A stretch of DNA of 27,008 nt, from the NCBI GenBank assembly GCA_038128265.1, contig JAYPJE010000038.1, positions 1 through 27,008 on the forward strand, given 5' to 3'. Shown in pieces: positions 4,662 through 26,978 of this stretch (positions are counted from its first letter, which is position 1; each line of letters opens with the position of its first letter). The DNA comes from Gemmatimonadota bacterium. Its GTDB lineage: Bacteria; Latescibacterota; UBA2968; UBA8231. Under the pieces are notes generated by a model that did no database searches, was not told the DNA's origin, and saw only the letters and a program-made list of their open reading frames with translations. Made by a program: the position numbers and the translations under genes.

Positions 4662-4676
4662 GCACGTGCCCCGCCT

Positions 4677-5492: not shown

Positions 5493-5524
5493 CGACTATT
5501 TCCCTAGCGGCGCCTCGGCTGCGT

Positions 5525-5926: not shown

Positions 5927-6010
5927 ATTCTCTATGCTCCCAATTATGCGTGCTGCGTTATCGCTTCACGCGCGCATGACGCTCTAACTTTCTTCAAGCG
6001 AGGTCTTCAC

Positions 6011-7664: not shown

Positions 7665-7667
7665 GGT

Positions 7668-8165: not shown

Positions 8166-8239
8166 GCCTTGTGCTCTCCTCTATAAAAGGGCAATGTGGT
8201 ATCGCCGTATGAATGAATCACCAAACATAAGCCACCGAT

Positions 8240-9484
8240 TTAGTCCAGCACCGCTCGGTAGATTGCCTCCGCGTCCGGCGCCTGCACTTCGACCGGATTG
8301 GGATCGAGCAAGCGACGCACCGTCATGGCCAATTCGACCATCCGCGGCACATCGGCCTCGCTCAGCCCCGACGCACGCAGCGACGCATAGGGCGTGAAGC
8401 GTCGGCGCAGGTCGTCAACCCATCGGGCGGCAGCTTCGGCGCCCTCTTCGCGGCTCTTGTCCCGCAAATCCAGCCCCGTTACGCCCGCAGCATAGTAATA
8501 CTTGTCGGCAACGGCCGGTGCGTTGTGGCGCATAACGCCCGGCAGCACGAGGGCAACGGCTGCGCCGTGGGGCACTGGATTGCCCCGCTCGTAGGATAGT
8601 TTTTCAATGCCGTAACCCAGCGCATGTCCCGCTCCAGTATTGATCGGGCTGAGCAGCAATCCGGCCAACAGCGCACAGCGGGCCATGCCCAGACGGGCCG
8701 CGCGGTCATCGGCTCCGTTTTCGACAGCTGCGACAAAGGACGCGGCACCGGCCCGCAGCGCTTCGCGCGCCACCGCATCGCCCACTGCATGACTCTTTTT
8801 CGACGCCGTGCACTCCAGCGCATGCCCCAGGGCATCGAGGCCTGTCACCGCCGTTAGCAGCGGTGGCAGCGTGCGCTGTAACAGCGGATCAACCAGGGCT
8901 ACGCGCGGCTGCAAATAGTCGCTGTAGACGGCCTTCTTACCCTCCGCATCGGCGATGACGCATACCCGGCTGGCTTCGCTGCCCGTGCCCGCCGTCGTCG
9001 GCAGCGCCAACACGGGCCAGCGCGCCGGCTGGGGAATCAGATCAAAGCCCCAATAGCGGTCAATCGGCTCACCTGTCGTCGCCACGCAGGCGGCCGCTTT
9101 GGCCGTATCCATGGTGCTGCCGCCGCCCAGCGCGAGCACGGCATTGGCTCCACTGGCGACGATCGCATCGGCGCATGCACCAACGCTGTCGACCGTGGGG
9201 TTGCTCACGACCCCATCGTACTCGCCGACCCGTTCGACTCCAGCCTCTTGCAGTGCGCGATGCACGTGCGGGGCCAACCCGCGCACGCCCGGGTCGCGCA
9301 CCAGCAGGACCCGCGTTACTTCGAGCCGCTGACACTCGGCGCCCAGCGCATCTAGGGCTCCTTCGCCCAACAGCACGCGCCGTTCGGCAAATTTGAAAAT
9401 GTGCACCAACTCTTCGAGGTGCTGCGCATCGGAAAAAAACGCGCTATCACCCAGTAGCTGCTCGTTTACCTGCACCTGAACCAT
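8240..9484 (-). CDS. Iron-containing alcohol dehydrogenase family protein
   Basis: GGGSTMDTAK, PTTAGTGSE, metal ligands DALGHALE, GHALG and PHG. GGAGG Shine-Dalgarno upstream. Confidence 0.93.
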   Translation of the reverse strand: MVQVQVNEQLLGDSAFFSDAQHLEELVHIFKFAERRVLLGEGALDALGAECQRLEVTRVLLVRDPGVRGLAPHVHRALQEAGVERVGEYDGVVSNPTVDSVGACADAIVASGANAVLALGGGSTMDTAKAAACVATTGEPIDRYWGFDLIPQPARWPVLALPTTAGTGSEASRVCVIADAEGKKAVYSDYLQPRVALVDPLLQRTLPPLLTAVTGLDALGHALECTASKKSHAVGDAVAREALRAGAASFVAAVENGADDRAARLGMARCALLAGLLLSPINTGAGHALGYGIEKLSYERGNPVPHGAAVALVLPGVMRHNAPAVADKYYYAAGVTGLDLRDKSREEGAEAAARWVDDLRRRFTPYASLRASGLSEADVPRMVELAMTVRRLLDPNPVEVQAPDAEAIYRAVLD

Positions 9485-9747
9485 GCCAACTGATTCCTCC
9501 GCCTATGGCGATTTGATCGACCCACTTAGGCTGCGCCCCACAGGCAACGCGCGGCGCACACACCGCCGGATATGGCTTTTGCCAACGACATCCGGGCGAC
9601 CTGCACACCGGCCTACAGCCCATTGGTGCGCATACCTTTTTCCCATATATTATGCACATCTCGTCGCGTCGAGTAAAACGACGAGGCGCACCACACCAGC
9701 GCCGATGGGTGCGACGCCCAATCGGCAGCTACAGGAGCCAAGCGCAT

Positions 9748-10509
9748 ATGAGCATCACGACCGATATACGTCAGCAATACGCCGAACAGGGTTACGTCAC
9801 GGGCATCGATATATTCGACCGCAGTGAAATCGACCACTACCGCAGCTGCTTTGACGCCCTGGAGGAGAGAGAAGGACGCGAAAAGTGCCAGATCGGCCTG
9901 CAGGCGCGCCATCTGACGGACGAGTTTATCTGGCAACTGTCTACCGATAGCCGACTGCTCGACGCCATGCAGGCCGTCATGGGCGATGATCTCTTGCTGC
10001 TGTCGACCCATTTTTTTTGCAAATACCCCGATCCCGACGCCAAGAAGTTCGTCGCCTGGCATCAGGACGTCACCTACTGGGGACTGGATCCGGCCGAAGC
10101 GCATACGGCGTGGATTGCCATCGACGATGCCGACGTGGAAAACGGCTGCATGCAGGCCATCCCCGGGTCGCATAAGCACGGCATTGCCATGCACTCCAAG
10201 TCCGACAAAGAAGGCAATTTGCTCAGCATCAACCAGGAAATTCCCGACGAGTATGTAGATACCAGTCAGGCCGCGAACATGGCGCTGCGAGCCGGACAGA
10301 TATCCATCCACGACGGCCAGCTGTATCACGCCAGCAACCCCAACGCATCCAATCGCCGCCGCTGCGGCCTGACGGTGCGCTTTGTGCCCCCGCACGTAAA
10401 GCAGGTCAACCTAAACTCCACGGGCGATAAATGGCCTGCCATTCTGGTCCGTGGCGAAGATCGCTACGGACACTTTCCCGTGCAGGACTGTCCATTTACA
10501 CTGTCCTGA
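9748..10509 (+). CDS. Phytanoyl-CoA dioxygenase (PhyH) family Fe(II)/2-oxoglutarate dioxygenase
   Basis: WHQD (HxD), WIAIDD..ENGC..IPGSH, distal HAS and RR. Start reassigned to ATG 9748 because of AGGAG at 9733-9737. Confidence 0.92.
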   Translation: MSITTDIRQQYAEQGYVTGIDIFDRSEIDHYRSCFDALEEREGREKCQIGLQARHLTDEFIWQLSTDSRLLDAMQAVMGDDLLLLSTHFFCKYPDPDAKKFVAWHQDVTYWGLDPAEAHTAWIAIDDADVENGCMQAIPGSHKHGIAMHSKSDKEGNLLSINQEIPDEYVDTSQAANMALRAGQISIHDGQLYHASNPNASNRRRCGLTVRFVPPHVKQVNLNSTGDKWPAILVRGEDRYGHFPVQDCPFTLS

Positions 10510-10563
10510 TCGGGCTCGACAACGCAAGCATGCTCATTACACAACCACTCAAGGAGTACGCGC

Positions 10564-11244
10564 ATGGCCCAGTATGACCGTATGGCCGTTCTAAATGCCA
10601 TATACGACACCGGGATCGTTCCCGTCTTCTACCATAAAGACCCTGAGACAACCATTCACATTGTCGAAGCCTGCGCCCGCGGCGGCGCGCGCTGCGTGGA
10701 GTTTACCAACCGCGGCGACTTAGCCTATCACGTCTTCACCGACGCCGTTCGCCACGTCATCGCCAACGAGCTCGACGTAATCATGGGCGTCGGCTCCATT
10801 GCCGATGCGCCCACCGCCGCGCTCTACATCGCCAACGGGGCCAACTTTGTCGTCGGCCCGCTGCTCAACGAAGAGGTCGCCCGCCTGTGCAATCGCCGCA
10901 AGATCGCCTATTCTCCGGGCTGCGGTTCGGTTACGGAAATTGGCCAGGCCGAAGAGCTGGGCGTCGAAATCGTAAAGGTGTTTCCCGGCAGCGAAGTCGG
11001 CGGTCCCGCCTTTGTAAAATCGGTCCTCGGCCCCTGCCCTTGGACGCGCATCATGCCCACCGGTGGCGTCGACGCCACGCGCGAGAGTCTGGAATCTTGG
11101 GTCAAAGCGGGCGTAGCCGCCGTCGGCGCCGGCTCCAAGCTCATCACCAAGGAATTGGTCGATGCCAAAGACTGGGACGGACTGGCCGAAAAAGTAGCGC
11201 AGAGCGTGCAGTGGGTTAAGGAAATTCGCGCCGAGATGGCCTAG
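10564..11244 (+). CDS. eda: KDPG/KHG aldolase
   Basis: VEFTNR, GVGSI, GANFVVGP, PGCGSVTEI, VKVFP (Schiff-base Lys), MPTGGV. AAGGAG SD at 10551. Confidence 0.93.
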   Translation: MAQYDRMAVLNAIYDTGIVPVFYHKDPETTIHIVEACARGGARCVEFTNRGDLAYHVFTDAVRHVIANELDVIMGVGSIADAPTAALYIANGANFVVGPLLNEEVARLCNRRKIAYSPGCGSVTEIGQAEELGVEIVKVFPGSEVGGPAFVKSVLGPCPWTRIMPTGGVDATRESLESWVKAGVAAVGAGSKLITKELVDAKDWDGLAEKVAQSVQWVKEIRAEMA

Positions 11245-13276: not shown

Positions 13277-14278
13277 ATGACCGTCACCCGCCGACAGTTT
13301 ATTCAAACTACTGCGCTGGCCGCCAGCAGTATCGCATTGACCGGCTCAGTCAGCGCCGCGACAAAGGAAAAGTACATGAGCGACGCCCGCCCTCTATTTG
13401 TATCGACCTGGCCCTTTGGCAAAGCGGCCAACGAACGCTCTCTGGAAGTGTTTGAGAACGGCGGCTCGGTCCTCGACGCCGTCGAGATGGGCATTCACGT
13501 GCCCGAAGCCGATGCCAGCAATGCCTCGGTCGGTTTAGGCGGCATTCCCAACGCCGAGGGTGTCGTGCAGTTGGACGCGTGCATAATGGACGGTGAAGGG
13601 CAGCGGGCTGGCAGCGTGGCCGGTATCGAAGACATCCTGCACCCCATTTCCGTCGCACGCCGCGTTATGGACGAGACCAAGCACGTTATGCTCGTCGGCG
13701 AAGGCGCACGCCAATTCGCCCTTTCGCAGGGCTTCGAAAAGGTCAACCTGCTGACAGAGGACCAGCGTCAGAAATGGGAAAAGTGGAGGGAAGACCAGCA
13801 CAAAGCCGATAACCACGACACCATTGCCCTGCTCGGCGTCGACGCCAGCGGCCACATAGCCGGCGGCTGTTCGACCAGCGGCTGGGGCTACAAACTGCCC
13901 GGACGCGTCGGCGACTCGCCCATTCTCGGCAGCGGCCTCTACGTCGACGGGCAGGTCGGCGCAGCCGGCGCCACGGGATTGGGCGAAAACGTCATGCGCT
14001 ACTGTGCCTCTTTCCTGGTCGTCGAGTACATGCGCCAGGGCCTGCATCCAGAGGAAGCCTGCATGGCCGCCATAAAACGCGTTGTGGCAGCCGACCCTCG
14101 CCCAGTTGAGGACCTGCACATCAACTTTGTCGCACTCGACAAACAGGGACGCTACGGCGCAGCTGGCACCAACGAAGGCTTCAAATACGCCGTCACCTAC
14201 CCCGGATACAGCGAAGTGCTCGAAGGGGCTGCCCTAAGCGCGGGCGACATTGGCCCCGAAGGAGGCAATATACGCTGA
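13277..14278 (+). CDS. N(4)-(beta-N-acetylglucosaminyl)-L-asparaginase (Ntn hydrolase) with Tat signal
   Basis: TRRQFI Tat motif, STWPF, SVGLGG.P, LDACIMD, HDTI autocleavage site, STSG..KLPGRVGDSP, ATGLGE. Confidence 0.92.
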   Translation: MTVTRRQFIQTTALAASSIALTGSVSAATKEKYMSDARPLFVSTWPFGKAANERSLEVFENGGSVLDAVEMGIHVPEADASNASVGLGGIPNAEGVVQLDACIMDGEGQRAGSVAGIEDILHPISVARRVMDETKHVMLVGEGARQFALSQGFEKVNLLTEDQRQKWEKWREDQHKADNHDTIALLGVDASGHIAGGCSTSGWGYKLPGRVGDSPILGSGLYVDGQVGAAGATGLGENVMRYCASFLVVEYMRQGLHPEEACMAAIKRVVAADPRPVEDLHINFVALDKQGRYGAAGTNEGFKYAVTYPGYSEVLEGAALSAGDIGPEGGNIR

Positions 14279-14376
14279 GTCGAACGGGGCGCTATCCCCC
14301 CTTTTATACGCAAATAGACGGAGGCATAAACTCCAGTAGATAATCGCAATTAGTAAATTTTCTATACTTTTTCCTG

Positions 14377-14418
14377 TTGACACTAGTGCGCGTCTTTTGT
14401 TTATTGTTGCAACGTCAA
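14377..14418 (+). promoter_or_regulatory. Candidate promoter/operator region of the exported-protein cluster
   Basis: TTGACA at 14377, best -10 TATTGT at 14402 (19-nt spacer), AT-rich upstream tract, palindromes CACTAGTG and GTTGCAAC. AGGAGG SD at 14494. Confidence 0.4.
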
Positions 14419-14504
14419 TCATAGATGTATCTGTCGTTCTCTGCGCGCACTGCGCAGCATTCATCAAACCTACAAAGCATTCATCCGCAAACTAGGAGGA
14501 AACG

Positions 14505-15461
14505 ATGCTTAAAGTAGCGAAAAGGGCTCTGGCTGCTAGCCTATGCCTCGTCGGCATAGCGAGCGCTCAGTTTTTTGATCCGCCGGCACTGGCCGACCGC
14601 AACGGTAGCCAGGGCTTCTGGTTTTACATGCTTGAAGTGCCGAATCCCGGCTCGATGAGCATGGACGGCTTCAACGACGATTGGGCCTGGTTCGATCCCG
14701 AGTTTACGCTGACCAACGACGAGTGGCGCGACGAAGGCGATCGCCCGGCTCCCGATCGCAGCGACCTCAACGTCACCACGTTTATGGGCTGGAAGGGCGG
14801 CGACGACAACCGCTGGTACGTCTTCCTCGAAGCCACGGACGACGTCATTGCCCACGCCGGCACCAACGTCGCGCGCTGGGACGGCGACATGCTGCAGGTC
14901 GGCCTCGATCCGCAGGATCACGGCCGCGAGCGCAGCCCGGCTTCGGGTTACACGATGGAATGGCTGATGGCGCCCGGCGATCTCAGCCCCCCCACCAACG
15001 TCGCTTTCCGCTACACCGAGCAGGAAGCATGGGCCGAGTACGGCGAGGCTCCGTGGATTGACTTCGCCGTGCGCGTCGATCCGGCGGAAGCTTGGGCTGC
15101 CGACCTGTGGACCGACGGTGGCACCACCTACTACGAGTTCAGCATCAAGGTGCTGGCCTTCCAGGAAGATGCCGGTCCCGGCGTCAGCGAAGTCTGGCAG
15201 TTGGACAACGTATCGGGTGAAGACGGTGCTGGTATGCCGTTCGCCATGTGGTACGAAGACGGCGAAGGCCCGGATTCGAGCTTCAGCCCGAACGACGACG
15301 GCACCCCCGGTGGTCGCAACGACTGGACGACTCGCGGTCCCGAAGCTTCGGCTCGTCAGTACTACTCGATCGCCAAGCTGCTGCGCATGGGCGAGTACGC
15401 CAGCAGCGCTACGGCTGTCGAATCCTCAACCTGGGGCGATATCAAGAACTCGTTCAAATAG
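14505..15461 (+). CDS. Secreted CBM9/DOMON-like putative sugar-binding protein with C-terminal TWGxIK tail
   Basis: Signal peptide ending ASA|Q. MDG..DDW, W...WYVFLEATDD, WDGDMLQVGLD, YYEFSI and FAMWYED match the CBM9-like pattern by eye. Ends ATAVESSTWGDIKNSFK. Strong SD. Confidence 0.8.
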   Translation: MLKVAKRALAASLCLVGIASAQFFDPPALADRNGSQGFWFYMLEVPNPGSMSMDGFNDDWAWFDPEFTLTNDEWRDEGDRPAPDRSDLNVTTFMGWKGGDDNRWYVFLEATDDVIAHAGTNVARWDGDMLQVGLDPQDHGRERSPASGYTMEWLMAPGDLSPPTNVAFRYTEQEAWAEYGEAPWIDFAVRVDPAEAWAADLWTDGGTTYYEFSIKVLAFQEDAGPGVSEVWQLDNVSGEDGAGMPFAMWYEDGEGPDSSFSPNDDGTPGGRNDWTTRGPEASARQYYSIAKLLRMGEYASSATAVESSTWGDIKNSFK

Positions 15462-15496
15462 AGCTTCTTGTTAATAGCAGTGCCCTGAGTTTGTGT

Positions 15497-15536
15497 GTCG
15501 GGCCAATTGGAGAGGTCCAATTGGCCCGACTTTTTT
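15497..15536 (+). terminator. Strong intrinsic terminator inside the cluster
   Basis: 15-bp perfect stem GTCGGGCCAATTGGA-GAGG-TCCAATTGGCCCGAC followed by T6. Confidence 0.88.
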
Positions 15537-15584
15537 CTGGTCTACACCGCTATTAGTTTTACTGCTTCAGGCAAGGTCGAGTTC

Positions 15585-16292
15585 ATGCGCGTAATACCTT
15601 TCATCTTATTGCTAATTGCCCTTAGCGGCTGTGGTCGCTATTTCCACACTCCGCTGCAGCCGTCCGAACAACAGGGTGACGGGATGACCCTAAACGACGA
15701 TGGGTCGATCACCTTCACGCGCGATCGCCTGTCGATCAACCTGAAGCCCATGACCGACGACGAGCTCAATCGCCTTTCGGCGGCCAGTGCCGATCCGTCG
15801 CTCAACCCCTATACCTTCGGCACGTGGAAAGCGCCTGGCGATGAGCACACTCCGGCGCGCTTCACCGTCTTCCGCCTCAAGGTAAATAACTACCAGTATC
15901 CTAAGATTCAGATCGATCCGCTCGAGGCTTCGATCTCGACAACCAACAGCCGCTACTACGAATCGCTGAGCTACGCCGACCTGTACAACTACTACCGCGC
16001 CTTCTGGCTTGGGCGCACGGGGCAGGGACGCCAGGCCTTTCAAACGCGCACCGATGCGCTCAAGCGCACGCTCTACAGCGACGCGCTTATCTTCAGCGGC
16101 AACGAGGAGCAGGGCTTTCTGGTATTCCCCACGCTGCACGACGACGTCCGCGACATCGACGTGCTCATTAAAAACGTGGCGCTGCGTTTCGACTACGCCA
16201 ACGAGCCAATCGAAACCCTAGATCTGAGCTTTTCTTTTAGCCGCGACATCTTGCAGGGCAACTCGGCGGCTACGGCCCAACCGCGCAACTGA
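15585..16292 (+). CDS. Lipoprotein of unknown function, probable Ig-like beta-sandwich
   Basis: From ATG 15585: MRVIPFILLLIALSGC, a canonical lipobox. The upstream GTG at 15495 lies at the terminator. The pattern FRLKVNN..IQIDP..IFSGNEEQGFLVFP resembles DUF4352-type folds (by eye). Confidence 0.82.
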   Translation: MRVIPFILLLIALSGCGRYFHTPLQPSEQQGDGMTLNDDGSITFTRDRLSINLKPMTDDELNRLSAASADPSLNPYTFGTWKAPGDEHTPARFTVFRLKVNNYQYPKIQIDPLEASISTTNSRYYESLSYADLYNYYRAFWLGRTGQGRQAFQTRTDALKRTLYSDALIFSGNEEQGFLVFPTLHDDVRDIDVLIKNVALRFDYANEPIETLDLSFSFSRDILQGNSAATAQPRN

Positions 16293-16300
16293 GCACTGAC

Positions 16301-18319
16301 ATGCAATCCTATTTTCGCCTGCGCGCACTTGCTATCGGACTCACGGCGTCAGCAATGCTCTTTTCGCCCAGGATCAGCCACGCGCAGATCGATGTATGGC
16401 ACATCGGCAAAGGCGGGCTCTCTTGGTCATCGCAGGCGGAAACGCAGATCGGCGCACTCGATGTGGATGGCGCGCTGCAGCCACTCGAACTGGTCGAAAG
16501 CGAAAGCTTGGTCGAGCTGCTGAACGCTTCGGGGCAGCGCTTCCTCAACGGACAGCCGCTCGACTTCACCCAGGGCGGTCAGCCGCGGGCCTGGTCAAAC
16601 GACGGTTTTTTCAACCAGCTCAACGGGCCGCTCGACCTGATTGACGGCGACCCCGAGACGTCTTCAAAAAGCGTATTCAAGTCGGCCCAAAGCCAGGCCG
16701 GCGCAGCGTTCTTCTGGGATTTGGGTGCCCCCTTCCCCATCAATCGCATACGCTTTTATCCCGAGCCCAATGACCCCGATGCCTTTATCAAGGCATTCGA
16801 GCTACAGGTTAACGACGGCGAGACATTCAACAATATAAACCGCCCCGAATACGAGCTGCTGCGCCGCGTCGAAGTGAATAGGCAACAGGTCGTCGATATT
16901 CAATTCGCCCCACTGCAGGGACGTTTTCTGCAGCTCCTCGTCCTATCGAAGACGACGTTCAATATTGCCGAATTTGAAATTTACGGGCAGGGTTTCGTGC
17001 CCATTGCCAGCTATGAGTCTTCGCTGCATTCGTTTGGGTCGGCCGTCAATTACGGCCTGCTACGCATGCATACAACCCGCCTGACTAGCGCACTGGGCGA
17101 TCCGGCTACTGCGCCCACAGCGACAATCCAAATGCGCACGGGTGCAGACGATACGCCGCTTGCGTACTTTCGCCGCGATCGCAACACCGGCTCTCAGGAA
17201 GAAGTGTCTTTTGCCGAGTACAACAACGACCTGCCGCGGCGCGCCCTATACCGACAGGATCCCACAACCGGGGAACTGCTAGAGGAAATAGACCGCGCAC
17301 CGTACCTCGACTTACCCGTCGAAGAGCAGGGCCCCGTTCGCGACTTTGTCAAAGGCGATATCCGCGCTGACGTAGAGAACTGGAGTTCTTGGTCTCCGGG
17401 CATCGAGATCAATTCAACGGGGCTGCTAGAAATCCCCATCGAACTGCCCAGCCCACGCCAGTACATGCAGTTTCGCGTATTTTTTAACGGCGACGCGGAA
17501 AATGCCATGCGCATCGATACGCTGCAGGTGCAGTTTTCGCCGAGCCTGGTAAGTAGTGCCATCGGCGAGATTGCACTCGCATCGAACCCGCAGCCAGCCA
17601 GCGGCGTGTTGGAAGTGGCCAGCGGTGTCGACACGACCTTCGTCTACGATGTGCGCACGGAGTTTGCCAGTGCCGACCTGGCCGGCTATCGAGGCATTCG
17701 CATCGAGGCATTCCCACCGCCCACTTTTTCTGACCTGCAGGCTGGCGATCCGCTCACCTCGATTGCCGACGTTAATGTCGTGCCGCGAGAACGGGGTTTT
17801 GACGTGCTCTTCCCCCCCGTCAGCAGCGACAACAACCAGCCCGTGCGCGTCGTGTTTGACATGCGGTTATTGGAGCACAACACGCCTATCAACGCCTGGC
17901 TATTGGGCGGCGACGGCGTGCCTCCACATCCAATTGCTCCGGGCAATGCCAGCGATGCCATTGGCACCGGCGTTATGAACGCCTTCGCCACGCAGTCTGA
18001 GCCCGATATGCGCGTCGACCTGTCCACGCGCTTTATCACCCCCAACGGCGACGGAGTCAACGACTTCGTAGACATCGAGTTAATCCTCTCGCAGTTCTCG
18101 GCAAATATCGATGTTTCGATTGGCATTTACGATCTGAGCGGGCGTCTCGTGCGCAGTCTGTCTACGGCACCTCGCTCTTCCGGATCCTATGCGGACGCTT
18201 GGGATGGGCGCAATGCGGCAGGGCGTACGGTTCCACCGGGACTCTACTTTTGCAAGGTAGAAGTCGCCGCTGATTCCGAGACATTTGATAGCACTCAGCT
18301 GATAGGAGTAGCGCATTGA
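16301..18319 (+). CDS. Secreted protein, discoidin/F5-8-like domain plus C-terminal CHU_C/FlgD-Ig-like domain (paralog 1)
   Basis: Signal peptide SHA|Q. LIDGD..WDLG..INRIRFYP..IAEFEIYG. C-terminus FITPNGDGVND..IYDLSGRLV..WDGRNAAGRTVPPGLY. Confidence 0.85.
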   Translation: MQSYFRLRALAIGLTASAMLFSPRISHAQIDVWHIGKGGLSWSSQAETQIGALDVDGALQPLELVESESLVELLNASGQRFLNGQPLDFTQGGQPRAWSNDGFFNQLNGPLDLIDGDPETSSKSVFKSAQSQAGAAFFWDLGAPFPINRIRFYPEPNDPDAFIKAFELQVNDGETFNNINRPEYELLRRVEVNRQQVVDIQFAPLQGRFLQLLVLSKTTFNIAEFEIYGQGFVPIASYESSLHSFGSAVNYGLLRMHTTRLTSALGDPATAPTATIQMRTGADDTPLAYFRRDRNTGSQEEVSFAEYNNDLPRRALYRQDPTTGELLEEIDRAPYLDLPVEEQGPVRDFVKGDIRADVENWSSWSPGIEINSTGLLEIPIELPSPRQYMQFRVFFNGDAENAMRIDTLQVQFSPSLVSSAIGEIALASNPQPASGVLEVASGVDTTFVYDVRTEFASADLAGYRGIRIEAFPPPTFSDLQAGDPLTSIADVNVVPRERGFDVLFPPVSSDNNQPVRVVFDMRLLEHNTPINAWLLGGDGVPPHPIAPGNASDAIGTGVMNAFATQSEPDMRVDLSTRFITPNGDGVNDFVDIELILSQFSANIDVSIGIYDLSGRLVRSLSTAPRSSGSYADAWDGRNAAGRTVPPGLYFCKVEVAADSETFDSTQLIGVAH

Positions 18320-20388
18320 GTGGCGCGATGCAAATAGTTAAAACCACGGCCCTCGGCCTAGTGCTCCTAGCGCTCTCAAGCCTGCCTGTCGACGCACAGA
18401 CGACCTGGGTGATTGGCGGCCCTAACGGCCAACCGTGGGCCGAGCTGGCCGAACGCTGGATCGCCCTCGACGACACGTCCAACGCCGGCTCCATTCAGCC
18501 GCAAGAGGTCCCGCGTGGCCACACGCTCACGCGCCAGCTGCTGCGCACGGGTATCGCTACTACGCAGCGCAACGTCTTTGGCTATCGCTGGAGTCTGCAC
18601 AAAGGTCCGCGACAAATCGAGGCCGATACGCTCGAAGTGGGTTGGCACCCGCGCCTGTGGCCGGGCGGTGGCACCAACGCCCTCGCTCCGGAAGTGTATC
18701 GCGGGCTGATCGACGGCGACGAATTGACGGCAGCATACCGGCACAACGCGCGTTTTGACGGACGTCCCAACAGCGTCAATTTTATCACGATCGACCTCGG
18801 CGTGCCCGTTCCCGTCGACAGCATCGTCTTTTTTCCCCCACAAACGGGGTTGACCAGCGACAACCAACGACAGGGCGATCTCTTTGCGCGCGCCTATGAA
18901 GTGAGCCGAACAAACGTGCCCGTCGAATGGCTGATCTTTGAAGACGAAAATACGTCGACGGGTTCCGTCGGTTACCACCCGCTCGACGAAGTCCTCGGCA
19001 GCACCTTCGCCAACAACACCAGTGTCGTATCGCTCACGCCCGAACTCGCTTTTACGCGGTTTCTGCGCTTCAAGTTTGGCGAGACGACGATCACGACGCT
19101 GCTGGCCGAAATTCAAGTCTTCGGACGCGGTTATCCACAGGAAGCGCGCTACATTTCCGTGCCGCATTCTTTTGGCGAACCCGTCAGCCTCGGCCGCGTG
19201 CACTGGAGCTTTACCCGCTATCGTCAGGCCACTTCTGGTGCGATCTTTGCCGATCCCGACGCCCCCGTCCACCTCGAGCTGCAGACGCGCGCCGGTTTTG
19301 ACGGCGAACCCAAGACCTACTTCATATTTGACGATCTCGGTCGACCCAGCGAGGTCGACGAAGCGACCTACTTCAACTCACCGCGCGTCGTAGAGCGTTT
19401 TTCTGAAGGCATCACCGGTTTCAGAGCACTGCGCGGAGACGACACCGAAAACTGGAATACGTGGTCCGTTCCCTATCAGGCGTCGGGAGATGAAATTCGC
19501 TCTTCCGACGGTGCGCAGTATCTCCAGTTTCGCTTTAACATCCGCAGCGAAGATCCAATGGCCTTCGGCGTGCTCGACAGCGTTGCCTTTGAAATTTCCC
19601 CCCTCCTAGCCGACAGTGCGCTGGCCGAGATTTCCATCGACGACGTGCAGCTAGCCGCGCAAAGTAGGCTGGTCGAAGTGCCGCTGGGCATACCGCAGGC
19701 CTTCGCATATGATCTGCGCACCGTAGCGGGCGCGGGGCGCGTAGGCTATGACACCATCGAACTCGACGTGCCGGGCGCCGCCCAGTTTAGCGGTCTCGAG
19801 ATCGACGGACAACCCGCCGTCGAGGGAAGCGACTTCTCGCTGGAAAGCACCAATCGACAGTTCCGCATTCGCTTTCCACAGGCCATACGCGAGGACCGCT
19901 CACTCCGCCTGCGCTTTAACTCGGCCATTTTTCAGGCCTCGGTATTCCTCGAAGGACGCATACTCAACAGCTCAACTGATGTCGCCCTGCCCCAGTCAGT
20001 CGAGGCGGGTAATGCACGCACAGACGTGGCCAGCGACGGCGTGCAAATCGTCGCCAGCGATGTAGAAATCGACATCCTCAGCCGCATCGCGCTATCCTCA
20101 GGTGCTTTTACTCCCAACGGAGACGGAATCAACGACCGCGCGACCGTATCGTTTGACCTATTCAGCGTCAACGGAGGCGCCTTGCGCGTCACCACCTTTG
20201 ACCTGGCCGGGCGCCGCATCGCCAATCTACTAGAAGAAGGCGCCGTGGCAGGTCCCTACGCCGTTGCGTGGAACGGTCGCAACGATAGCGGACAGGCCGT
20301 TCCACCAGGCATCTATTTGGTGCGCGTTGAAGTCGAAGTGGACGGGGGCCTATTCAGCCAGATCGCCCATGTGGGCGTAGCCTATTAA
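18316..20388 (+). CDS. Secreted protein, discoidin-like plus CHU_C/FlgD-Ig-like domain (paralog 2)
   Basis: TTG start overlaps the upstream TGA (TTGA) with AGGAG 7 nt before it; alternative ATG at 18328. Signal peptide VDA|Q. LIDGD..IDLG..LAEIQVFG. FTPNGDGIND..FDLAGRRI..WNGRNDSGQAVPPGIY. Confidence 0.85.
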   Translation: MSGAMQIVKTTALGLVLLALSSLPVDAQTTWVIGGPNGQPWAELAERWIALDDTSNAGSIQPQEVPRGHTLTRQLLRTGIATTQRNVFGYRWSLHKGPRQIEADTLEVGWHPRLWPGGGTNALAPEVYRGLIDGDELTAAYRHNARFDGRPNSVNFITIDLGVPVPVDSIVFFPPQTGLTSDNQRQGDLFARAYEVSRTNVPVEWLIFEDENTSTGSVGYHPLDEVLGSTFANNTSVVSLTPELAFTRFLRFKFGETTITTLLAEIQVFGRGYPQEARYISVPHSFGEPVSLGRVHWSFTRYRQATSGAIFADPDAPVHLELQTRAGFDGEPKTYFIFDDLGRPSEVDEATYFNSPRVVERFSEGITGFRALRGDDTENWNTWSVPYQASGDEIRSSDGAQYLQFRFNIRSEDPMAFGVLDSVAFEISPLLADSALAEISIDDVQLAAQSRLVEVPLGIPQAFAYDLRTVAGAGRVGYDTIELDVPGAAQFSGLEIDGQPAVEGSDFSLESTNRQFRIRFPQAIREDRSLRLRFNSAIFQASVFLEGRILNSSTDVALPQSVEAGNARTDVASDGVQIVASDVEIDILSRIALSSGAFTPNGDGINDRATVSFDLFSVNGGALRVTTFDLAGRRIANLLEEGAVAGPYAVAWNGRNDSGQAVPPGIYLVRVEVEVDGGLFSQIAHVGVAY

Positions 20389-20407
20389 TGCGCGTCGGAG
20401 ATTGGAT

Positions 20408-22786
20408 ATGAAGACCATACTGCGACTGTTCATACTGCTATCCCTGCTGGGCGTCGGCGGCACCGGCCACGCCCAGGACATCGACTTTGCCGGCAGCGAC
20501 TTCGACACGTGGAGCTACCCGCGCGGACTGGTCAACATACAGCCGGACGGCATCGTAGTTAAGCGCTTTGAGAAAGAGTTTAATGCCGTCGCGAATGCCG
20601 GCGAATTCAGCGCCAGCGTCATCGGCGAATACGGGCAGCGCTTTGCACGCACTCCGTCCAATGCCAATTCGGGTCATCTGGTCGGTGATCAAGACACCGG
20701 CACGTGGTGGCAGCCCAGCGCCGATGACGAGGTGGAAAAGTGGTGGATCGAAATCGACTTGGGTCGTGCGGTGGTAGCCGAAAAGCTGCGCGTCATCTTT
20801 CCCGACCAGGATGGGGCGCGCCCCTTTAGCTTTTTCTCCGTCTATGTCAGTCCCGGCATCCCGGTATTCGGCGGCGCCTCCCAGCGCATCGTCTACAACC
20901 GTCTTGGGCGGCCTATCAATAACAACACGCGCAGCACCGTCGAGTTTGATCTCAAAACGACCGGGCTTTTTCCCGCGACGGGAGACTTTCTTGCCACCGA
21001 CGAAGAAGTCAGCTTTGATGTCGTCCGCTTTGTGCGCTTTGAGGCAGCCGGCAAAACGCCGGATGCCGCCCTGGCCGAAATCGAGGTCGATGGAGTCGGT
21101 TTTAACCTCTCGACACGAGTGCAAACAGAAGCGCGCATAGAAGATAACCTGCCCCACTGGGGAGGCCGCACCTGGACGTCCAAAGACCGCGACTGCGACG
21201 GCTGCGGCAAGGGCAGCGGCTCTGAAGCGCTCATCGACCAAGATCTCGGATTTCGCGGCTGGAATATCGAGGCATCCGACAAGGGCAACTGGCGCGATTC
21301 AGGCGTTTGGTCCGTCATCGACTTTGGCAATGTGTTCCGCGTCGACCGCATCGTCTGGATGCCCATCGTATCCGGCCAAGGTCCGTTTCTCTACGGCTAT
21401 CAGCGCGACAAGCAGGGCCTCTGGGGCAGCTTTGAGTTTCTGGCGTCGGACGGCACGCCGAGCAACCGCTCCGACCCCGTCGTCGAAGGCCCGTTTCTCT
21501 ACGAGCAGCTCTCGGCCGTCGACAACTCGAAGCGACGCTACCTATTCGACTTCCAATTTGCTCCGCGCGCGCTGCGCCTGCTGATGTGGCGGGTAATTCG
21601 CCCCGACCAGTTTCACCGCGCCGTGCAGCTCTTTGTTTTTCACAGCGAAGGCTACCCCGCTCAAATCGAGTTGGAATCGGATGATATTTTTCTGGGAGGA
21701 GCGCGCAGTATACGCTTTGTCGAATGGGATGCCGACTTGCCGACAGGCACTCGAGTTGAGATTGAAACGCAGACTGGCAACGGCTTCGACACCTTACAGC
21801 GCTATTTCTTAGCCAACGGCAAAGAAGTGACGAAAGACGCCTACGACGCAGCCAAATCGCGCAACCGTGGAGATATTGTCGAAGAGCGCGTTCGCGATGA
21901 TACGTGGAGCAGTTGGAGTCGACCGCAGCGATTTTCTGGCCAAGAGTTTCTCTCGCCGTCGCCGCGTCAGTGGCTGCGCGCCCGCGTGCGTCTGATCAGC
22001 GACGACCCCACGGCTTTTCCGAAGCTGCGCAGCATAAAGTTTGTCGCCAACTCGCCGGTTATTACGGCTGGTTTGATAGGGCGCATCGCACCGCGCGAAG
22101 CAGCGATAGATTCACTACAGACGTTTCGCTACACCATAAAACCCTTGGCCTTTGGCAGGAGCGATGCCGGCTTTGACCGCGTGCTCATCGACCTGCCGCC
22201 GGGCAGCGTTGACGCCGAATTTGTCGGCGCCAGCGTCGGCGGCAACGACGTCGACGCCAGCGCGGCGCTGCGCAGCGATTCGCTTATTGTCCAACTGCCA
22301 CCGCCCGTCGTGCGCGGCGACTCCGTGCAGATAACCTTTCGTGCGCGCGTTAGCGAAAGTCCGACCGAGTTCAATACGGCCGTTGCCAACTCCGATCAGC
22401 AAGAGAATTTCCAAGGCGTTGTTCCGGCTGAATACGGCGCCATTCAGGTCTTTGTTCCGGATGCGGTCGCCGGCGTTTCGCTGGTGCGCAAAGTGGACGA
22501 CTCGCAGTGGATCACGCCCAACGGAGACGGCGTCAACGACCGCTACGAGTTGAATTTCACGGTGGTTAAGACCGGCGTCGAACCGCAGGTGCGCGTGTTT
22601 ACGCTGGGCGGCGAGCTGGTCGCCGAGTTGACCGACATGAGCGCCGGAGGCAACCGTTCGCACTATGAATGGGACGGCGCGCGCGCGGGAAAAACCGTGC
22701 CACCTGGAATCTATATTGTGCGCATTGAGGTGGACGCGGACGCCCGCGATGAACAGCTCCACCGACTCGTCCGCGTCGCATACTAG
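20408..22786 (+). CDS. Secreted protein, two discoidin-like domains plus CHU_C/FlgD-Ig-like domain (paralog 3)
   Basis: ATG 20408 with GGAG 7 nt upstream. Signal peptide GHA|Q. WIEIDLG..LAEIEV and a second IDFGNVFRVDRIVW. WITPNGDGVND..WDG..GKTVPPGIY. Confidence 0.85.
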   Translation: MKTILRLFILLSLLGVGGTGHAQDIDFAGSDFDTWSYPRGLVNIQPDGIVVKRFEKEFNAVANAGEFSASVIGEYGQRFARTPSNANSGHLVGDQDTGTWWQPSADDEVEKWWIEIDLGRAVVAEKLRVIFPDQDGARPFSFFSVYVSPGIPVFGGASQRIVYNRLGRPINNNTRSTVEFDLKTTGLFPATGDFLATDEEVSFDVVRFVRFEAAGKTPDAALAEIEVDGVGFNLSTRVQTEARIEDNLPHWGGRTWTSKDRDCDGCGKGSGSEALIDQDLGFRGWNIEASDKGNWRDSGVWSVIDFGNVFRVDRIVWMPIVSGQGPFLYGYQRDKQGLWGSFEFLASDGTPSNRSDPVVEGPFLYEQLSAVDNSKRRYLFDFQFAPRALRLLMWRVIRPDQFHRAVQLFVFHSEGYPAQIELESDDIFLGGARSIRFVEWDADLPTGTRVEIETQTGNGFDTLQRYFLANGKEVTKDAYDAAKSRNRGDIVEERVRDDTWSSWSRPQRFSGQEFLSPSPRQWLRARVRLISDDPTAFPKLRSIKFVANSPVITAGLIGRIAPREAAIDSLQTFRYTIKPLAFGRSDAGFDRVLIDLPPGSVDAEFVGASVGGNDVDASAALRSDSLIVQLPPPVVRGDSVQITFRARVSESPTEFNTAVANSDQQENFQGVVPAEYGAIQVFVPDAVAGVSLVRKVDDSQWITPNGDGVNDRYELNFTVVKTGVEPQVRVFTLGGELVAELTDMSAGGNRSHYEWDGARAGKTVPPGIYIVRIEVDADARDEQLHRLVRVAY

Positions 22787-22810
22787 ACGCATTTATTAAC
22801 GCAGTGAACA

Positions 22811-22846
22811 CGGCGTCTCATCCATTATTTTAGGCAAGAGACGCCG
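22811..22846. other. Intergenic inverted repeat without a U-tract
   Basis: CGGCGTCTC-N18-GAGACGCCG between paralog 3 and the last gene of the cluster. Confidence 0.5.
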
Positions 22847-22894
22847 CCCATAAGCGAAAAGTAAAAAGTTAGTACTCATCCATGGGAGGGTGAT

Positions 22895-25546
22895 GTGAGA
22901 CGTAATCCGCTCATACTGTTGGCCTGCCTGTCCGTCCTGTTGCTCTGCACGGCACGCCAGTCCACAGCCCAAAGCGTCACGGGGTATGAAAACCCCTACT
23001 ACACCACCGGCACCGAACTTTCGCCGGCAACGCTCGTGCCTTCTGTGCGCAAGTGGTACCTGCCGCAGCGTCTGTATTCGCTCTACGATTGGCGCCAAGA
23101 ACAGTACTCCAACTACGCGCGCAACAACTACGAGCGCTACACCGACGTCTTCTTAGAGGGCACGCCGTTCTACGACATATACGGCGACTACATAACCCAG
23201 GGATGGCTGGTATACGACTGGACGGAAGACTATCCGGTAGACAATGGCAGTATCATCACCAAGAATCCCAAGTTTCGCTCCTGGTTTAACAACTTGCTCA
23301 TCTCGTCGAGCCATTCGGGAGAATTTCACTCGTCGCTGATGGTCGGCGATGGCATCCGCACTACGCTGACGCCGCTAACCTTCTCAAAGCCCCGCTTTGA
23401 CGGCATCCAGTGGGATTTTATGACCGACAAATACGCCGTAACCCTGCTGTCATCGCGCGTGAGCAACACCGGTGAAATATCCAGCACGGAAATTGGCGGC
23501 GGCGTGCAGGCCGGCACGTTTACCAACCTGATGGCGGCGCGCGGCCGCGTGCAGGTCGGTGACTTTGCTAGCATGGGGGCAACGTTTGTCAACGCGGCGC
23601 ATCGCAACTCAAATGTGCCCTTCGGCGACAACTCGCTCAGCGGTTTGCTGAGCGGCCCGATGAACTCCGACTTTGTGCGCTCCATCGTGGTGCGCATATC
23701 GGATGACTCGCCCGAAGACGGCGAGGGCGGCGCGCTGCTATCGCGCTGGCGCATCTTTGTAAATGGCGTCGAACACACCGACGACATCATACCGACCGTC
23801 GAAGGCGGCGTGCGCCGACGCGGCGTCATCGAGGCCAGCGGCACAGACGTGATCACCCTGACTTTCAACATCGAAGATTTCTCGCCGAGCGTAGAGGATG
23901 AAATCGACGACTTCCGCGAAATTGAGCGCGTGGAAATCGGTCTGGTCTTGGCCAACGACTACCGCGTCGACATCACGTCCAACAAGCAGACCAACAACCT
24001 CGGCACGCCGGTCTACCTGCCCGTGCTGCGCGCCTCGGGCAATGTGAAAGACGGATCTAACCAGACCTTTCACCGCTTCAGCTACGGCTTGCCTACCGCA
24101 ACGCGCATGCTGGGATTTGACCTGTCCATTGCCGACGTGGGCGGTCTCGATATTAAGGGTGAATTCGTGCGCAACTTCCAGTATCGTCGCTTTCCCAACG
24201 AAAATTTTCCACGCGACCAGAAGCGCGCCACCAACAAGGCCGACGCCTTCTACTTAACCGCGCAGAAGCGCAGCTATCCGTGGACGGTTTATGGCGAATT
24301 ATTCAGCATTGATCCGGACTATAGCACGCGCGCCTTTATGCCCAATGCCGAAGGTCAGGTGTTCTACGATAACGAGCAGCGCCACATATACGAATTTGTC
24401 GACGACAACGACGACCAGGACGAACTGCCAGACTGGACGCGCCGTTCGTATGGCACCCGCGTCAATACGCGCCAAGGGCAGGGCCTATACGCCGATGCGG
24501 CCGTCTTTCCGGGCATCGACGAAGACAACGACGACATATCCGATTTCAACCGCAACTTCAATTCGCAGCCCGACTACGACGAACCCTTTCTGCGCTTTGA
24601 AGTCGAGTCACCGGATTTTCTCTTCGGCTTGGATATGAACAACAACGGCGTTATCGACCGCTTTGAAGACGACGAAGAGGCCGACTACCCCTACAAGCTA
24701 GGCCGCAGGGGATACAACGCCTATGCCACCGTCGAGATCGTTCCACGCGCCACGCTCATGGTCGGCTACTTGGACCAGCGCCTGCTAAAAACTTCGCGTG
24801 AAAACCAGTCGGCCTACATGCTGTTAACCGCGAAAAAAGAATACCCAGAGCGCGACCTGAGCGTGTGGATGGTCGTCAATCCGCGCAAAGTGAAGGACGA
24901 CATACCCGACGATGTGCTGCTGTGGAAAGACCTGCCAGGCACGTTTGGGCGTTCGATCTTTACCCGCGACATTCTCGCCGCACGCGATGCGTTTATCAAT
25001 ACCACCTATCTCGAGGTGCACTACGATCGCTATCTACCGCTGACGGCTAAAATCAAGCACGAGTTTTACGATCAGCTCGGTTCGGCTCCCGACGGCCTGC
25101 GCGATCAGAGCTTCTTGGGTGTAGTGACGAAGGGCGAATACGCAACCGACATCCAGCACTGGACGCTCATCCCGCGCTGGAAGCAGATATACAGCGATCG
25201 CACGCCGGCACAGCGCGGCAACCTGAAGCAGCGCGAGCTGACGCAAATCCTTTCGCTGCAAGCCGTCCGCCCCATCAATAAAAACATGCGCTTTATCGCC
25301 GGCAGCGAATACGAGATTTTTAACAACCTGCGCAAAAAGCCCGATCCTCTGCCCTCTGGCTACCTGTTAGATGGCAAGACGTGGATCTTGGCGGCTCAGG
25401 TGGCCAATAGCTCGGCGTATTTGGGCTACTCGCTGACCTCCAACGTCGGCGTGCGCTGGATTCACAGCAATTTCGACGAAGCCCCGGCGGCGTCGGAGTT
25501 CTTCTCCTTTATCAGCGTATACGCTGGATTGGGCACCGAGCGCTAG
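22895..25546 (+). CDS. Large exported hypothetical protein, putative outer-membrane beta-barrel with Asp-rich Ca-binding-like loops
   Basis: GTG start after GGGAGG. Signal peptide STA|Q. Many alternating hydrophobic/aromatic strands (e.g. GYNAYATVEI, LTSNVGVRWI, FFSFISVYAGL). DDNDDQD, DEDNDD and DMNNNGVID loops. The CDS is solid; the barrel call is inference. Confidence 0.75.
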   Translation: MRRNPLILLACLSVLLLCTARQSTAQSVTGYENPYYTTGTELSPATLVPSVRKWYLPQRLYSLYDWRQEQYSNYARNNYERYTDVFLEGTPFYDIYGDYITQGWLVYDWTEDYPVDNGSIITKNPKFRSWFNNLLISSSHSGEFHSSLMVGDGIRTTLTPLTFSKPRFDGIQWDFMTDKYAVTLLSSRVSNTGEISSTEIGGGVQAGTFTNLMAARGRVQVGDFASMGATFVNAAHRNSNVPFGDNSLSGLLSGPMNSDFVRSIVVRISDDSPEDGEGGALLSRWRIFVNGVEHTDDIIPTVEGGVRRRGVIEASGTDVITLTFNIEDFSPSVEDEIDDFREIERVEIGLVLANDYRVDITSNKQTNNLGTPVYLPVLRASGNVKDGSNQTFHRFSYGLPTATRMLGFDLSIADVGGLDIKGEFVRNFQYRRFPNENFPRDQKRATNKADAFYLTAQKRSYPWTVYGELFSIDPDYSTRAFMPNAEGQVFYDNEQRHIYEFVDDNDDQDELPDWTRRSYGTRVNTRQGQGLYADAAVFPGIDEDNDDISDFNRNFNSQPDYDEPFLRFEVESPDFLFGLDMNNNGVIDRFEDDEEADYPYKLGRRGYNAYATVEIVPRATLMVGYLDQRLLKTSRENQSAYMLLTAKKEYPERDLSVWMVVNPRKVKDDIPDDVLLWKDLPGTFGRSIFTRDILAARDAFINTTYLEVHYDRYLPLTAKIKHEFYDQLGSAPDGLRDQSFLGVVTKGEYATDIQHWTLIPRWKQIYSDRTPAQRGNLKQRELTQILSLQAVRPINKNMRFIAGSEYEIFNNLRKKPDPLPSGYLLDGKTWILAAQVANSSAYLGYSLTSNVGVRWIHSNFDEAPAASEFFSFISVYAGLGTER

Positions 25547-25558
25547 TCGCCTCCAAAT

Positions 25559-25596
25559 GCAAAGGGCCGCCGGAATGCTCCGGCGGCCCTTTTTGC
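25559..25596. terminator. Bidirectional intrinsic terminator
   Basis: 14-bp stem AAAGGGCCGCCGGA-ATGC-TCCGGCGGCCCTTT with A and T tails, between convergent genes. Confidence 0.88.
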
Positions 25597-25610
25597 GTCA
25601 TGCCCTCTAA

Positions 25611-26978
25611 TTACTGCGAAAACGCCAGGTCGAGTCCTTCGGAGAAAATCTCTACCTCTCCGTCAAACGCCTCCTTCAGCTCGACCAATAGCTCGTCCAT
25701 CGCCTTGTTCTGCGCGTCGTTTTGCATAGCCGTGCGAATGCTCTCGCGCAAAAACTCAAACTCCGTTACTTTGCCATCTTCGCGCGTAAATTCGCTGATA
25801 TTGGCGTCGTAGAACGCACGCACAGCGTTATCCGATATGGGCGCAGTTCGCTTTGTAACTTCAGCGCGAAAGAGCTTTCCGACAATCAGCTTGTCGCGCT
25901 CTGCGTCCAGTTTGCTGCGAATAGCCTCGTCTCGATCGAGTCCCAGCAAACGCGCTTCCGCTAGCATAATTTGCTTGCCGGCCAGATTGTCTGCGTCTCG
26001 CAGCAGAATATCTCCGGTGCGGCTGCCCGGAGCATGGGCACTGCCTGCGTTGACGGCATCCATATAATCGCCGTCTGTCAGTTGACCGCCGTCCCACGTG
26101 CACAGAGAGCGCTTCAATACGAAAGTATCCGACCATTTGGCCAGCAACTCTTCGTCGCAGCGCAGCTGGTAACGCGCGCGTAGACTGTGCACGTAGCGCT
26201 CCATATCGTCGGCCCGACGCTGCACGAGCGCCTGTTTTTCCATCAGTTCGCGCGCATCGGCAAAATCAATGGCACGGCGCTCGGCCAGACGAAACACGTG
26301 GTATCCCATAGCGGTGAGTACCGGTTGAGGATAGAGGCTGCCAACCGGCATCGTGCTCAGCGGCTTTTTTAGCGGCTCCATCACATCGCCAATCTTAAAC
26401 CATCCCACCCATCCCTTGGGGCCAAAGCGCGCAATAATGTTCTGGGTCGAGTAGGTGCCTACGAGCGATTCGAAAGCCGCGCCGGCATTGAGCGCTTCGA
26501 TAACCTCCAGTGCCCGTTCCTCGCTGGTGCAAACGATGTGCTGGCTCATCACCTCCACGTCGTACTGGTAGTCGTGAAAAAATGTGCGCAGTTCTTCTTC
26601 TGTGAAGCTGTACGACGGCTGAACGGCTTCGCGCTCATACAGCTCCATCATCAACATCTTGCGCTCGCTCTTTTCAATCGTCGTCGCAATCGTCGAGTCG
26701 CGATGGTATCCCCTACGCATACCTTCCATAATTAAGAGCTGGCGAGCGATGATGCCGTCGAGCAACGTTCGTTTGCCCTCGGCGTTGAACTGCGCAACGT
26801 GGCTATAGCCCGTCTGCTTGAGTTCTCTAGCCATGTCTTCAAACTGCTCGACCGATAGTGCTCTATCGCCAATACGCGCAACGAGCACCGTCTCGTCGGC
26901 CAACGCACGTTCCGCACTAGCCAACGCGACTACAACCCATATTAATGCCGAAGCGATAAACATTCTCATAGGCCTCAT
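25611..26978 (-). CDS. Exported parvulin-type peptidyl-prolyl isomerase / SurA-PrsA-like foldase
   Basis: Signal peptide ending ALA|D. VARIGDRALS..LLDGII.RQLL SurA-N-like segment that recurs near the C-terminus. Rotamase motifs QHIV, FESLV..YS, VGWF, PVLTAMGYHVF. Start could be 26978, 26969 or 26963. Confidence 0.82.
   Translation of the reverse strand: MRPMRMFIASALIWVVVALASAERALADETVLVARIGDRALSVEQFEDMARELKQTGYSHVAQFNAEGKRTLLDGIIARQLLIMEGMRRGYHRDSTIATTIEKSERKMLMMELYEREAVQPSYSFTEEELRTFFHDYQYDVEVMSQHIVCTSEERALEVIEALNAGAAFESLVGTYSTQNIIARFGPKGWVGWFKIGDVMEPLKKPLSTMPVGSLYPQPVLTAMGYHVFRLAERRAIDFADARELMEKQALVQRRADDMERYVHSLRARYQLRCDEELLAKWSDTFVLKRSLCTWDGGQLTDGDYMDAVNAGSAHAPGSRTGDILLRDADNLAGKQIMLAEARLLGLDRDEAIRSKLDAERDKLIVGKLFRAEVTKRTAPISDNAVRAFYDANISEFTREDGKVTEFEFLRESIRTAMQNDAQNKAMDELLVELKEAFDGEVEIFSEGLDLAFSQ

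Follow-up and report, generated by a model that had tools for sequence, protein, structure and literature searches.

The stretch of DNA examined here (the window) comprises 27,008 nucleotides of contig JAYPJE010000038.1 (C38; assembly GCA_038128265.1), one of the 102 contigs of a 4.29-Mb genome that is 84% complete, and carries within positions 14505–25546 six open reading frames (ORFs) on the forward strand, g1 to g6, whose products are exported. On the sequence evidence, these six genes are a genuine module, a conserved cassette that is repeated many times over in the Latescibacterota, and they most likely build a sugar-binding complex on the cell surface. The source organism is a marine or estuarine member of the Latescibacterota, whose metagenome-assembled genome (MAG) encodes a type IX secretion system (T9SS); it does not belong to the Bacteroidota, to whose surface machines the original prediction, an earlier reading of the nucleotide sequence, had referred. 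Relatives of g6 with 55–97% identity sit in MAGs titled Latescibacterota, with some titled Gemmatimonadota, Handelsmanbacteria or Planctomycetota, which we take to be labelling differences. The stretch itself is present in estuary, marine, seawater and biofilm metagenomes (13 studies).

Each of the six proteins opens with a hydrophobic N-terminal segment (Kyte-Doolittle 19-residue mean 1.2–1.8), with signal-peptide cleavage sites read by eye, and no helical membrane span was seen in any of them, the Kyte-Doolittle mean never reaching 1.6 after residue 35. The co-directional arrangement, the export of all six products and the lack of a recognisable catalytic motif had been noted earlier and are borne out, Pfam and NCBIfam giving no catalytic domain in g1–g6. 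The first gene, g1 (14505–15461), encodes 318 amino acids that end in a C-terminal tag (15408–15458, TAVESSTWGDIKNSF); a ribosome-binding site, AGGAGG, can be read at 14494–14499, 5 nt upstream of its start codon. Between g1 and g2, on the same strand, lies an intrinsic-terminator-like hairpin (15497–15530) whose 15-pair stem includes 9 G-C pairs and is followed by a T6 run. It is by far the strongest of the 13 terminator-like sites in 14000–26000, a total that does not exceed that of shuffled sequences (12.0, standard deviation 3.9); the terminator after g1 is real, as the original prediction had it. The second gene was listed as an ORF of 15495–16292, the GTG start of which falls inside this hairpin; judged from the sequence, the real start is the ATG at 15585 (g2, 15585–16292), giving a lipoprotein of 235 amino acids (MRVIPFILLLIALSGC) with the lipobox L-S-G-C. 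Three paralogs follow, each ending in a C-terminal domain (CTD) that appears to be of the T9SS type: g3 (16301–18319; 672 amino acids, discoidin or F5/8 type C, CTD at residues ~578–672), g4 (18316–20388; 690 amino acids, CTD at ~597–690) and the larger g5 (20402–22786; 794 amino acids from a TTG, with an alternative ATG at 20408; CTD at ~702–794). The last gene, g6 (22895–25546), encodes an exported protein of 883 amino acids from an unnamed family, putatively located in the outer membrane. The gaps amount to 8 nt between g2 and g3, −4 nt between g3 and g4, and 13 nt (TTG) or 19 nt (ATG) between g4 and g5, so that the spacings of 8, −4 and 19 nt first reported hold when g5 is counted from its ATG. 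Convergent with g6, on the reverse strand, a gene for a SurA/PrsA-like peptidyl-prolyl isomerase (PPIase) occupies 25611–26978.

The evidence that these genes belong together comes from their recurrence. Among 71 related loci, drawn from numerous MAGs of the Latescibacterota and with g6 identities as low as 55%, 59 reach at least 8.5 kb upstream of g6, and the order g1-g2-g3-g4-g5-g6 is kept in 57 of these; the two exceptions, under a 50%-coverage filter, miss only g1 in one case and g1–g3 in the other. By g6 identity and flanking genes the loci form at least three old paralogous types (~79–97%, 72–73% and 68–70%), all of which can co-occur, for example as three loci on one contig of a single MAG. 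The same pattern is seen within the source genome, for which we used a set of 3444 ORFs from a simple longest-ORF caller and assigned families by best blastp match at E ≤ 1e-5. A second full cassette lies on contig C28 (identities of 60% for g1, 46% for g2, 55% for g3, 52% for g4, 56% for g5 and 68% for g6) and a reduced one, with g1, g2, one discoidin gene and g6, on contig C9. In total, the genome holds 24 g6-type, 69 discoidin/CTD-type, 9 g2-type and 4 g1-type genes. A discoidin/CTD gene stands immediately upstream, on the same strand, of 16 of the 24 g6-type genes; three of the others follow another g6 paralog, one lies at a contig end and four have a different gene upstream. The conserved neighbourhood that the original prediction had proposed to look for, in this genome and in related MAGs, is thus present, and a scatter of homologs lacking any shared context is contradicted by these counts.

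The PPIase gene appears to be part of the same unit. Its product matches Rotamase_2 with 43 bits and, weakly, SurA_N_3; it is the next gene downstream of g6 in 49 of 64 related loci, and of its ten paralogs in the source genome, eight have a cassette-family gene no more than 350 nt away. We therefore count the SurA/PrsA-like PPIase as a seventh member of the module.

The distribution of the cassette was followed by profile matches in 121 sampled genomes from the phylum, 72 of which match g6 and 68 g2. The two profiles run nearly in parallel: both are found in all 40 genomes of the source organism's own family (f1), and neither in any of the 29 genomes of family f2 or the 13 of family f3. Since SprA is present in 116 of the 121 genomes, including 29/29 in f2 and 13/13 in f3, the cassette is a lineage-specific accessory of T9SS-bearing cells and not a part of the T9SS core. 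The families f2 and f3 belong to the same class (42 sampled genomes, many of them complete); that they lack the cassette reflects either a loss in these two families or a gain in other lineages. Relatives hold from 20 to more than 100 first-look g6 candidates per genome.

The source genome itself encodes the T9SS, with matches to SprA (593 bits) and to PorU (656 bits). Next to PorU are encoded an M6-like cargo protein and a member of the PorV family (260 bits); the PorP family is represented by weak matches only, whose 52.7 and 25 bits fall short of the cut-off (90.55). The CTD portion of the PorU model matches about 50 places in the genome, g3 included. The CTDs of g3–g5 tie the module to this T9SS and make it an accessory to a known secretion system. 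Of the self-standing module first envisaged, the conserved unit remains, while its CTDs lead to the secretion system of the cell and its membership extends to the PPIase. In the literature searched, on T9SS, discoidin proteins and outer-membrane polysaccharide handling in Latescibacteria/Latescibacterota, no published description of the cassette was found, in keeping with the proposal that the system is undescribed.

The three central proteins share 26–28% identity with one another (28% between g4 and g3), which confirms that they are paralogs. Their discoidin-like nature, predicted for all three, reaches the cut-off of F5_F8_type_C (PF00754, 28.2 bits) in g3 only, with 36.0 bits, as compared to 18.2 for g4 and 18.1 for g5; the last two count as discoidin members by virtue of their paralogy to g3. 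The predicted sorting-type CTDs are domains of about 90 residues. They match FlgD_ig (37.3 bits for g3, 27.3 for g4) at scores that equal or exceed those of CHU_C (cut-off 27), for which g3 (35.2) and g5 (30.0) are above and g4 (21.7) below the threshold, and the g5 profile matches the FlgD Ig-like domain of 3osv over residues 719–792 (E 3.2e-4). By these similarities the tails of g3–g5 would be of the T9SS type, and we assign them neither to type A nor to type B. Elsewhere in the genome, discoidin/CTD genes stand in tandem, as many as five in a row, with no adjoining g6-type gene, and may be regarded as "orphan" cargo, as at C9:19031–31176; further such arrays occur on contigs C24, C66, C88, C98, C23 and C6.

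The lipobox cysteine of g2, Cys16, is kept in 15/15 relatives, in agreement with the lipoprotein call of the original prediction. No Pfam match was obtained for g2, a profile search against the PDB was empty, and its Atlas relatives are unnamed lipoprotein clusters only. An AlphaFold2 model (predicted local distance difference test 85.3, predicted template modelling score 0.82) has the form of a β-sandwich with two helices; the closest folds, those of the lipoproteins or secreted proteins YcdA, YjhA and MPT63, are borderline (Z 8.3–8.9) and represent generic sandwiches.

The assignment of g1 to the CBM9-like proteins, made in the original prediction, is weakly supported. The protein itself has no Pfam match at E ≤ 0.01, but three of 16 family members match CBM9_1 (PF06452; best E 6.5e-7), and the family profile finds the CBM9 structure 1i82 in the PDB with E 0.0012 over 72 positions. 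From 1.84 billion cluster representatives, 443 proteins are retrieved with the g1 profile at E ≤ 1e-3. Organism names were available for two of the ten g1-family clusters looked up, and both are Latescibacterota.

What the earlier reading had not noticed is the C-terminal tail of g1. In an alignment of 16 relatives, an invariant T..V....W...K, within TAVExxSWGxIKxxF, follows a variable linker, and T303, V305, W310 and K314 are kept in 16/16. The motif is found in the last 30 residues of 69 of the 88 full-length (250–400 amino acids) relatives among the best 150 matches, mostly ending 4–6 residues short of the C-terminus. The source proteome (3444 ORFs, 1.34 million residues) contains 19 instances of the pattern [ST]W[GAS]x[IVLM]K, and 17 of these fall within the last 40 residues of small exported proteins, which are 137–366 amino acids long. 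Besides the window, the tagged proteins are located on contigs C7, C9, C11, C13, C14, C16, C24 and C28. A g6-type gene lies within 10 kb of nine of the 17, compared with 225 of the 3444 ORFs overall, for which the hypergeometric figure of 3e-7 is overstated as the genes are not independent. Of the 17 tagged proteins, a profile built on the g1 body minus its tail recovers just seven and a tail-only profile 12 at E < 0.01, and four of the tagged proteins beside cassettes have no Pfam match; the tail therefore sits on diverged or altogether different bodies. Taken together, these features suggest that TAVExxSWGxIK is a candidate sorting or docking signal, which may be undescribed; no paper that treats the motif strings as a sorting signal was found in the literature searched. 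Docking of the tag to g6 is one possibility. An outer-membrane β-signal was also considered and rejected on a reading by eye, as the spacing of the tag does not match the consensus.

Several features bear on how g1 is expressed. The gene is set between its AGGAGG and the terminator, and a crude scan without shuffle control detects a similar stem-loop and T run behind g1 at 29 of the 58 orthologous loci. Two RNA-labelled public runs, from two studies, yield error-free contigs over 14482–15410, that is over g1 only, one of the two runs being flagged as probably DNA. Apart from two short pieces g2–g6 are uncovered in the RNA-labelled runs, contig non-coverage being no evidence of silence; one DNA run covers all 30 bins of a 13.8-kb stretch. 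These data hint weakly at a separate and abundant g1 transcript.

The protein encoded by g6 has no Pfam or NCBIfam match and no sequence match in the PDB, and 0/39 members of its family match Pfam. The family is a large one, with 1197 matches at E ≤ 1e-3 among 8000 scored candidates, and all source names among the best 120 matches listed are "hypothetical". In the 39-sequence alignment the invariant motifs are of two kinds, aromatic-rich in the N-terminal part and Asp/Asn-rich in the centre, with invariant columns from D504 to D513, D534 to P564 and G578 to Y600. The central motifs (residues ~500–600, nucleotides 24392–24694) include the runs DDNDDQD, DxNxNxN and GxDxNxN...DRFExD; they have no Pfam match even at E ≤ 10 and resemble calcium-binding loops, a role that we regard as a guess. 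The strand-rich character first ascribed to g6 derives solely from a crude scan, which counts some two dozen amphipathic strand-like stretches. These stretches, together with the signal peptide, the lack of a helical span and the linked SurA-like chaperone gene, are indirect signs from which we infer that g6 is an outer-membrane protein. In a separate line, the nearest Pfam-bearing Atlas cluster (0.89) pointed to DUF6029, a "TonB-dependent receptor-like barrel", and this candidate proved unsupported, as DUF6029 matches a different gene; compared by hhalign with the DUF6029 protein and a TonB-dependent receptor of the source genome, the g6 profile gives 0.12% and 0.36%, single-sequence templates making the comparison insensitive.

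The surroundings of the cassettes are varied. In the window, the region upstream of g1 (3696–11244) holds genes resembling those of sugar-acid catabolism and redox enzymes: a zinc alcohol dehydrogenase, a UxuA-like dehydratase fused to a TIM-barrel part, a pyroglutamyl peptidase, a flavin reductase, an iron alcohol dehydrogenase, a PhyH dioxygenase and a KDPG (2-keto-3-deoxy-6-phosphogluconate) aldolase. PhyH, MR_MLE and GFO/IDH/MocA genes flank other cassettes as well. Pairs of FG-GAP/UnbV_ASPIC proteins and multi-TPR (tetratricopeptide repeat) proteins recur beside the cassettes on contigs C28, C9 and C11, leucine-rich-repeat proteins stand inside those on C18 and C40, and DUF6785/DUF6784 membrane proteins adjoin those on C9 and C65. 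A distant paralog cluster (C7:56000–75999) consists of a CBM9-like tagged protein, g6-like proteins of 1042 and 1009 amino acids, a g2-like lipoprotein and a 1095-amino-acid TPR protein, followed by ExbB, ExbD and ExbD.

How the parts may work together can be proposed at a lower level of certainty. The reading that we favour, tentatively and with slightly less than even confidence, is that the cassette specifies a T9SS-fed surface lectin module that is analogous, not homologous, to type B cargo with PorP/SprF and PorE. In such a module, g3, g4 and g5 would cross the inner membrane via Sec and be routed by their CTDs through the T9SS, and g6, as a large outer-membrane protein, would receive them and hold them at the surface as their cognate anchor or shuttle. 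The g2 lipoprotein would adjoin g6 at its periplasmic or membrane side, and the neighbouring SurA-like PPIase would chaperone the assembly. The g1 protein, expressed from a promoter of its own with transcription mostly terminated before g2, would serve apart from the others as a binding or structural subunit, with the tag directing its delivery. The complex is predicted to bind polysaccharide or glycoprotein, and the roughly two dozen diverged cassettes might each serve a different ligand.

A number of observations weigh against this proposal. The outer-membrane barrel of g6 is deduced from indirect signs and is not a solved fold. The length of g6, ~880 amino acids, greatly exceeds that of the 14-stranded PorP proteins, the PorP/SprF model TIGR03519 finds no match in g6, and the g6 profile gives only 0.06% and 0.3% in hhalign against the PorV and PorP-like proteins of the source genome, here again with insensitive single-sequence templates. 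The CTDs stay below the cut-offs of the dedicated sorting models, with 27.4 bits for g3, 26.5 for g5 and no match for g4 against the type B model TIGR04131 (cut-off 35), and 21.1 bits for the type A NCBIfam domain (cut-off 23). The ~69 discoidin/CTD genes outnumber the 24 g6-type genes, leaving many without an adjacent partner, and for eight of the 17 tagged proteins there is no g6 gene in the vicinity.

The main rival, which is possible but which we think unlikely, is that the cassette is a locus for glycan capture and import, a functional analogue of SusC/SusD in which g6 forms a channel into the periplasm, the discoidin proteins and g1 bind polysaccharide, some paralogs are possibly energised by ExbB/ExbD, and each cassette handles one substrate; it is compatible with an anchoring role for g6. 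The multiplicity of the cassettes resembles that of polysaccharide utilization loci (PULs), with 24 g6-type genes in a 4.3-Mb genome and 20 to more than 100 candidates in relatives, and the neighbouring genes would suit an import function, since they include ABC (ATP-binding cassette) binding proteins and permeases, MR_MLE enolase-superfamily, GFO/IDH/MocA and PhyH enzymes, the UxuA-like, KDPG-aldolase, PhyH and alcohol-dehydrogenase genes upstream in the window, and the ExbB, ExbD, ExbD set that ends the C7 cluster. The DUF6029 cluster nearest to g6 was a lead in the same direction that was not borne out, given that this domain belongs to another gene and that the profile comparisons gave next to nothing. 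Pfam and NCBIfam detect no Plug or TonB-dependent-receptor domain in g6, whereas the source genome has nine ordinary Plug-domain receptors, none of them (0/9) in a g6-type gene. The six-gene unit contains no glycoside hydrolase, lyase or regulator, and g2, modelled as a β-sandwich, is not SusD-like. The statement of the original prediction that SusC/TonB, SusD and PorP signatures are missing thus agrees with what the domain models and the g2 fold indicate.

A bolder version, doubtful in our view, combines elements of both readings. The cassette would be a self-contained new outer-membrane machine, in which a family of giant barrels, so far mainly from the Latescibacterota, captures and imports glycans by way of T9SS-delivered lectins, while the TAVExxSWGxIK tail plugs CBM9-like and other small exported proteins into the barrel. 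If true, an equivalent of the PULs would have been invented independently of SusC/SusD, together with a new protein-sorting signal.

We regard as improbable a role in adhesion or in a coat structure, with g1 as an abundant subunit of a surface-layer-like coat, the discoidin proteins as adhesins that attach the cell to particles, to the matrix of a biofilm or to a host, and g6 as no more than their platform. Many relatives do come from sponge and biofilm samples, the stretch itself is found in estuary, marine, seawater and biofilm metagenomes, and the recurrent FG-GAP/ASPIC, TPR and leucine-rich-repeat neighbours are typical of cell-surface interaction; the strong ribosome-binding site and terminator of g1 would also fit an abundant subunit, as would, as a weak hint, the RNA-labelled contigs over g1 only, one run of which may be DNA. 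Discoidin and CBM9-like domains, however, are best known as carbohydrate binders, two dozen diverged copies suit a diversity of substrates better than a single coat, and repeat or self-assembly features were not found. Finally, that the genes are merely exported neighbours with no joint function is very improbable in view of the order kept in 57 of 59 loci, the repetition of the unit within genomes, the 4-nt overlap and 8-nt gap, and the matching distribution of g6 and g2, which uphold the dedicated module of the original prediction.

The Latescibacterota, an uncultured phylum of wide distribution, break down polymers from algae and plants. For the passage of substrates across their outer membrane, non-specific porins were assumed in a single-cell genome study of 2015 (PMC4454575). 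With two dozen diverged copies per genome, the cassette is probably central to the ecology of these organisms, and it would stand beside the SusC/SusD loci as a second mode of organising glycan capture at the cell surface. The g6 family and the C-terminal tag provide testable handles for structural and sorting studies.

In comparison with known systems, the cassette shares with the SusC/SusD PULs of the Bacteroidota the presence of dozens of diverged loci that combine a large, here putative, outer-membrane protein with carbohydrate-binding-type proteins and a lipoprotein; it differs from them in that g6 carries no Plug/TonB-dependent signature and that the unit includes no SusD-like protein, enzymes or sensor. 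The CTDs of g3–g5 resemble FlgD-Ig or type A-like domains, as does the PorU tail, which recalls the type A cargo handled by PorV and PorU; PorV, however, is a single general shuttle that is not encoded per cargo, whereas the cassette has a large partner gene beside its cargo. The nearest parallel is the type B system, in which, according to two publications (PMC9143113, PMC12618676), adjacent genes encode a surface protein, a 14-stranded PorP/SprF anchor or shuttle and the periplasmic lipoprotein PorE, the last described in the former as composed of TPR, propeller and OmpA-like parts. As with SprB-SprF and PG1035-PorP-PorE, a CTD cargo gene lies directly beside the genes for a partner and a lipoprotein, cognate pairs are numerous in a genome and are accompanied by "orphan" cargo, and the T9SS core is present. 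The cassette is thus, as far as gene arrangement allows the comparison, analogous to the type B/PorP-SprF system and not a member of it, g6 being no relative of PorP/SprF: it is a protein of ~880 amino acids with no detectable similarity to the ~300-residue, 14-stranded PorP/SprF/PorV family. Moreover, g2, unlike PorE, is a small lipoprotein with a predicted β-sandwich fold, each unit has three paralogous cargo proteins, and, in the phylum Latescibacterota, the arrangement is extended by g1 with its own tag and by the PPIase.

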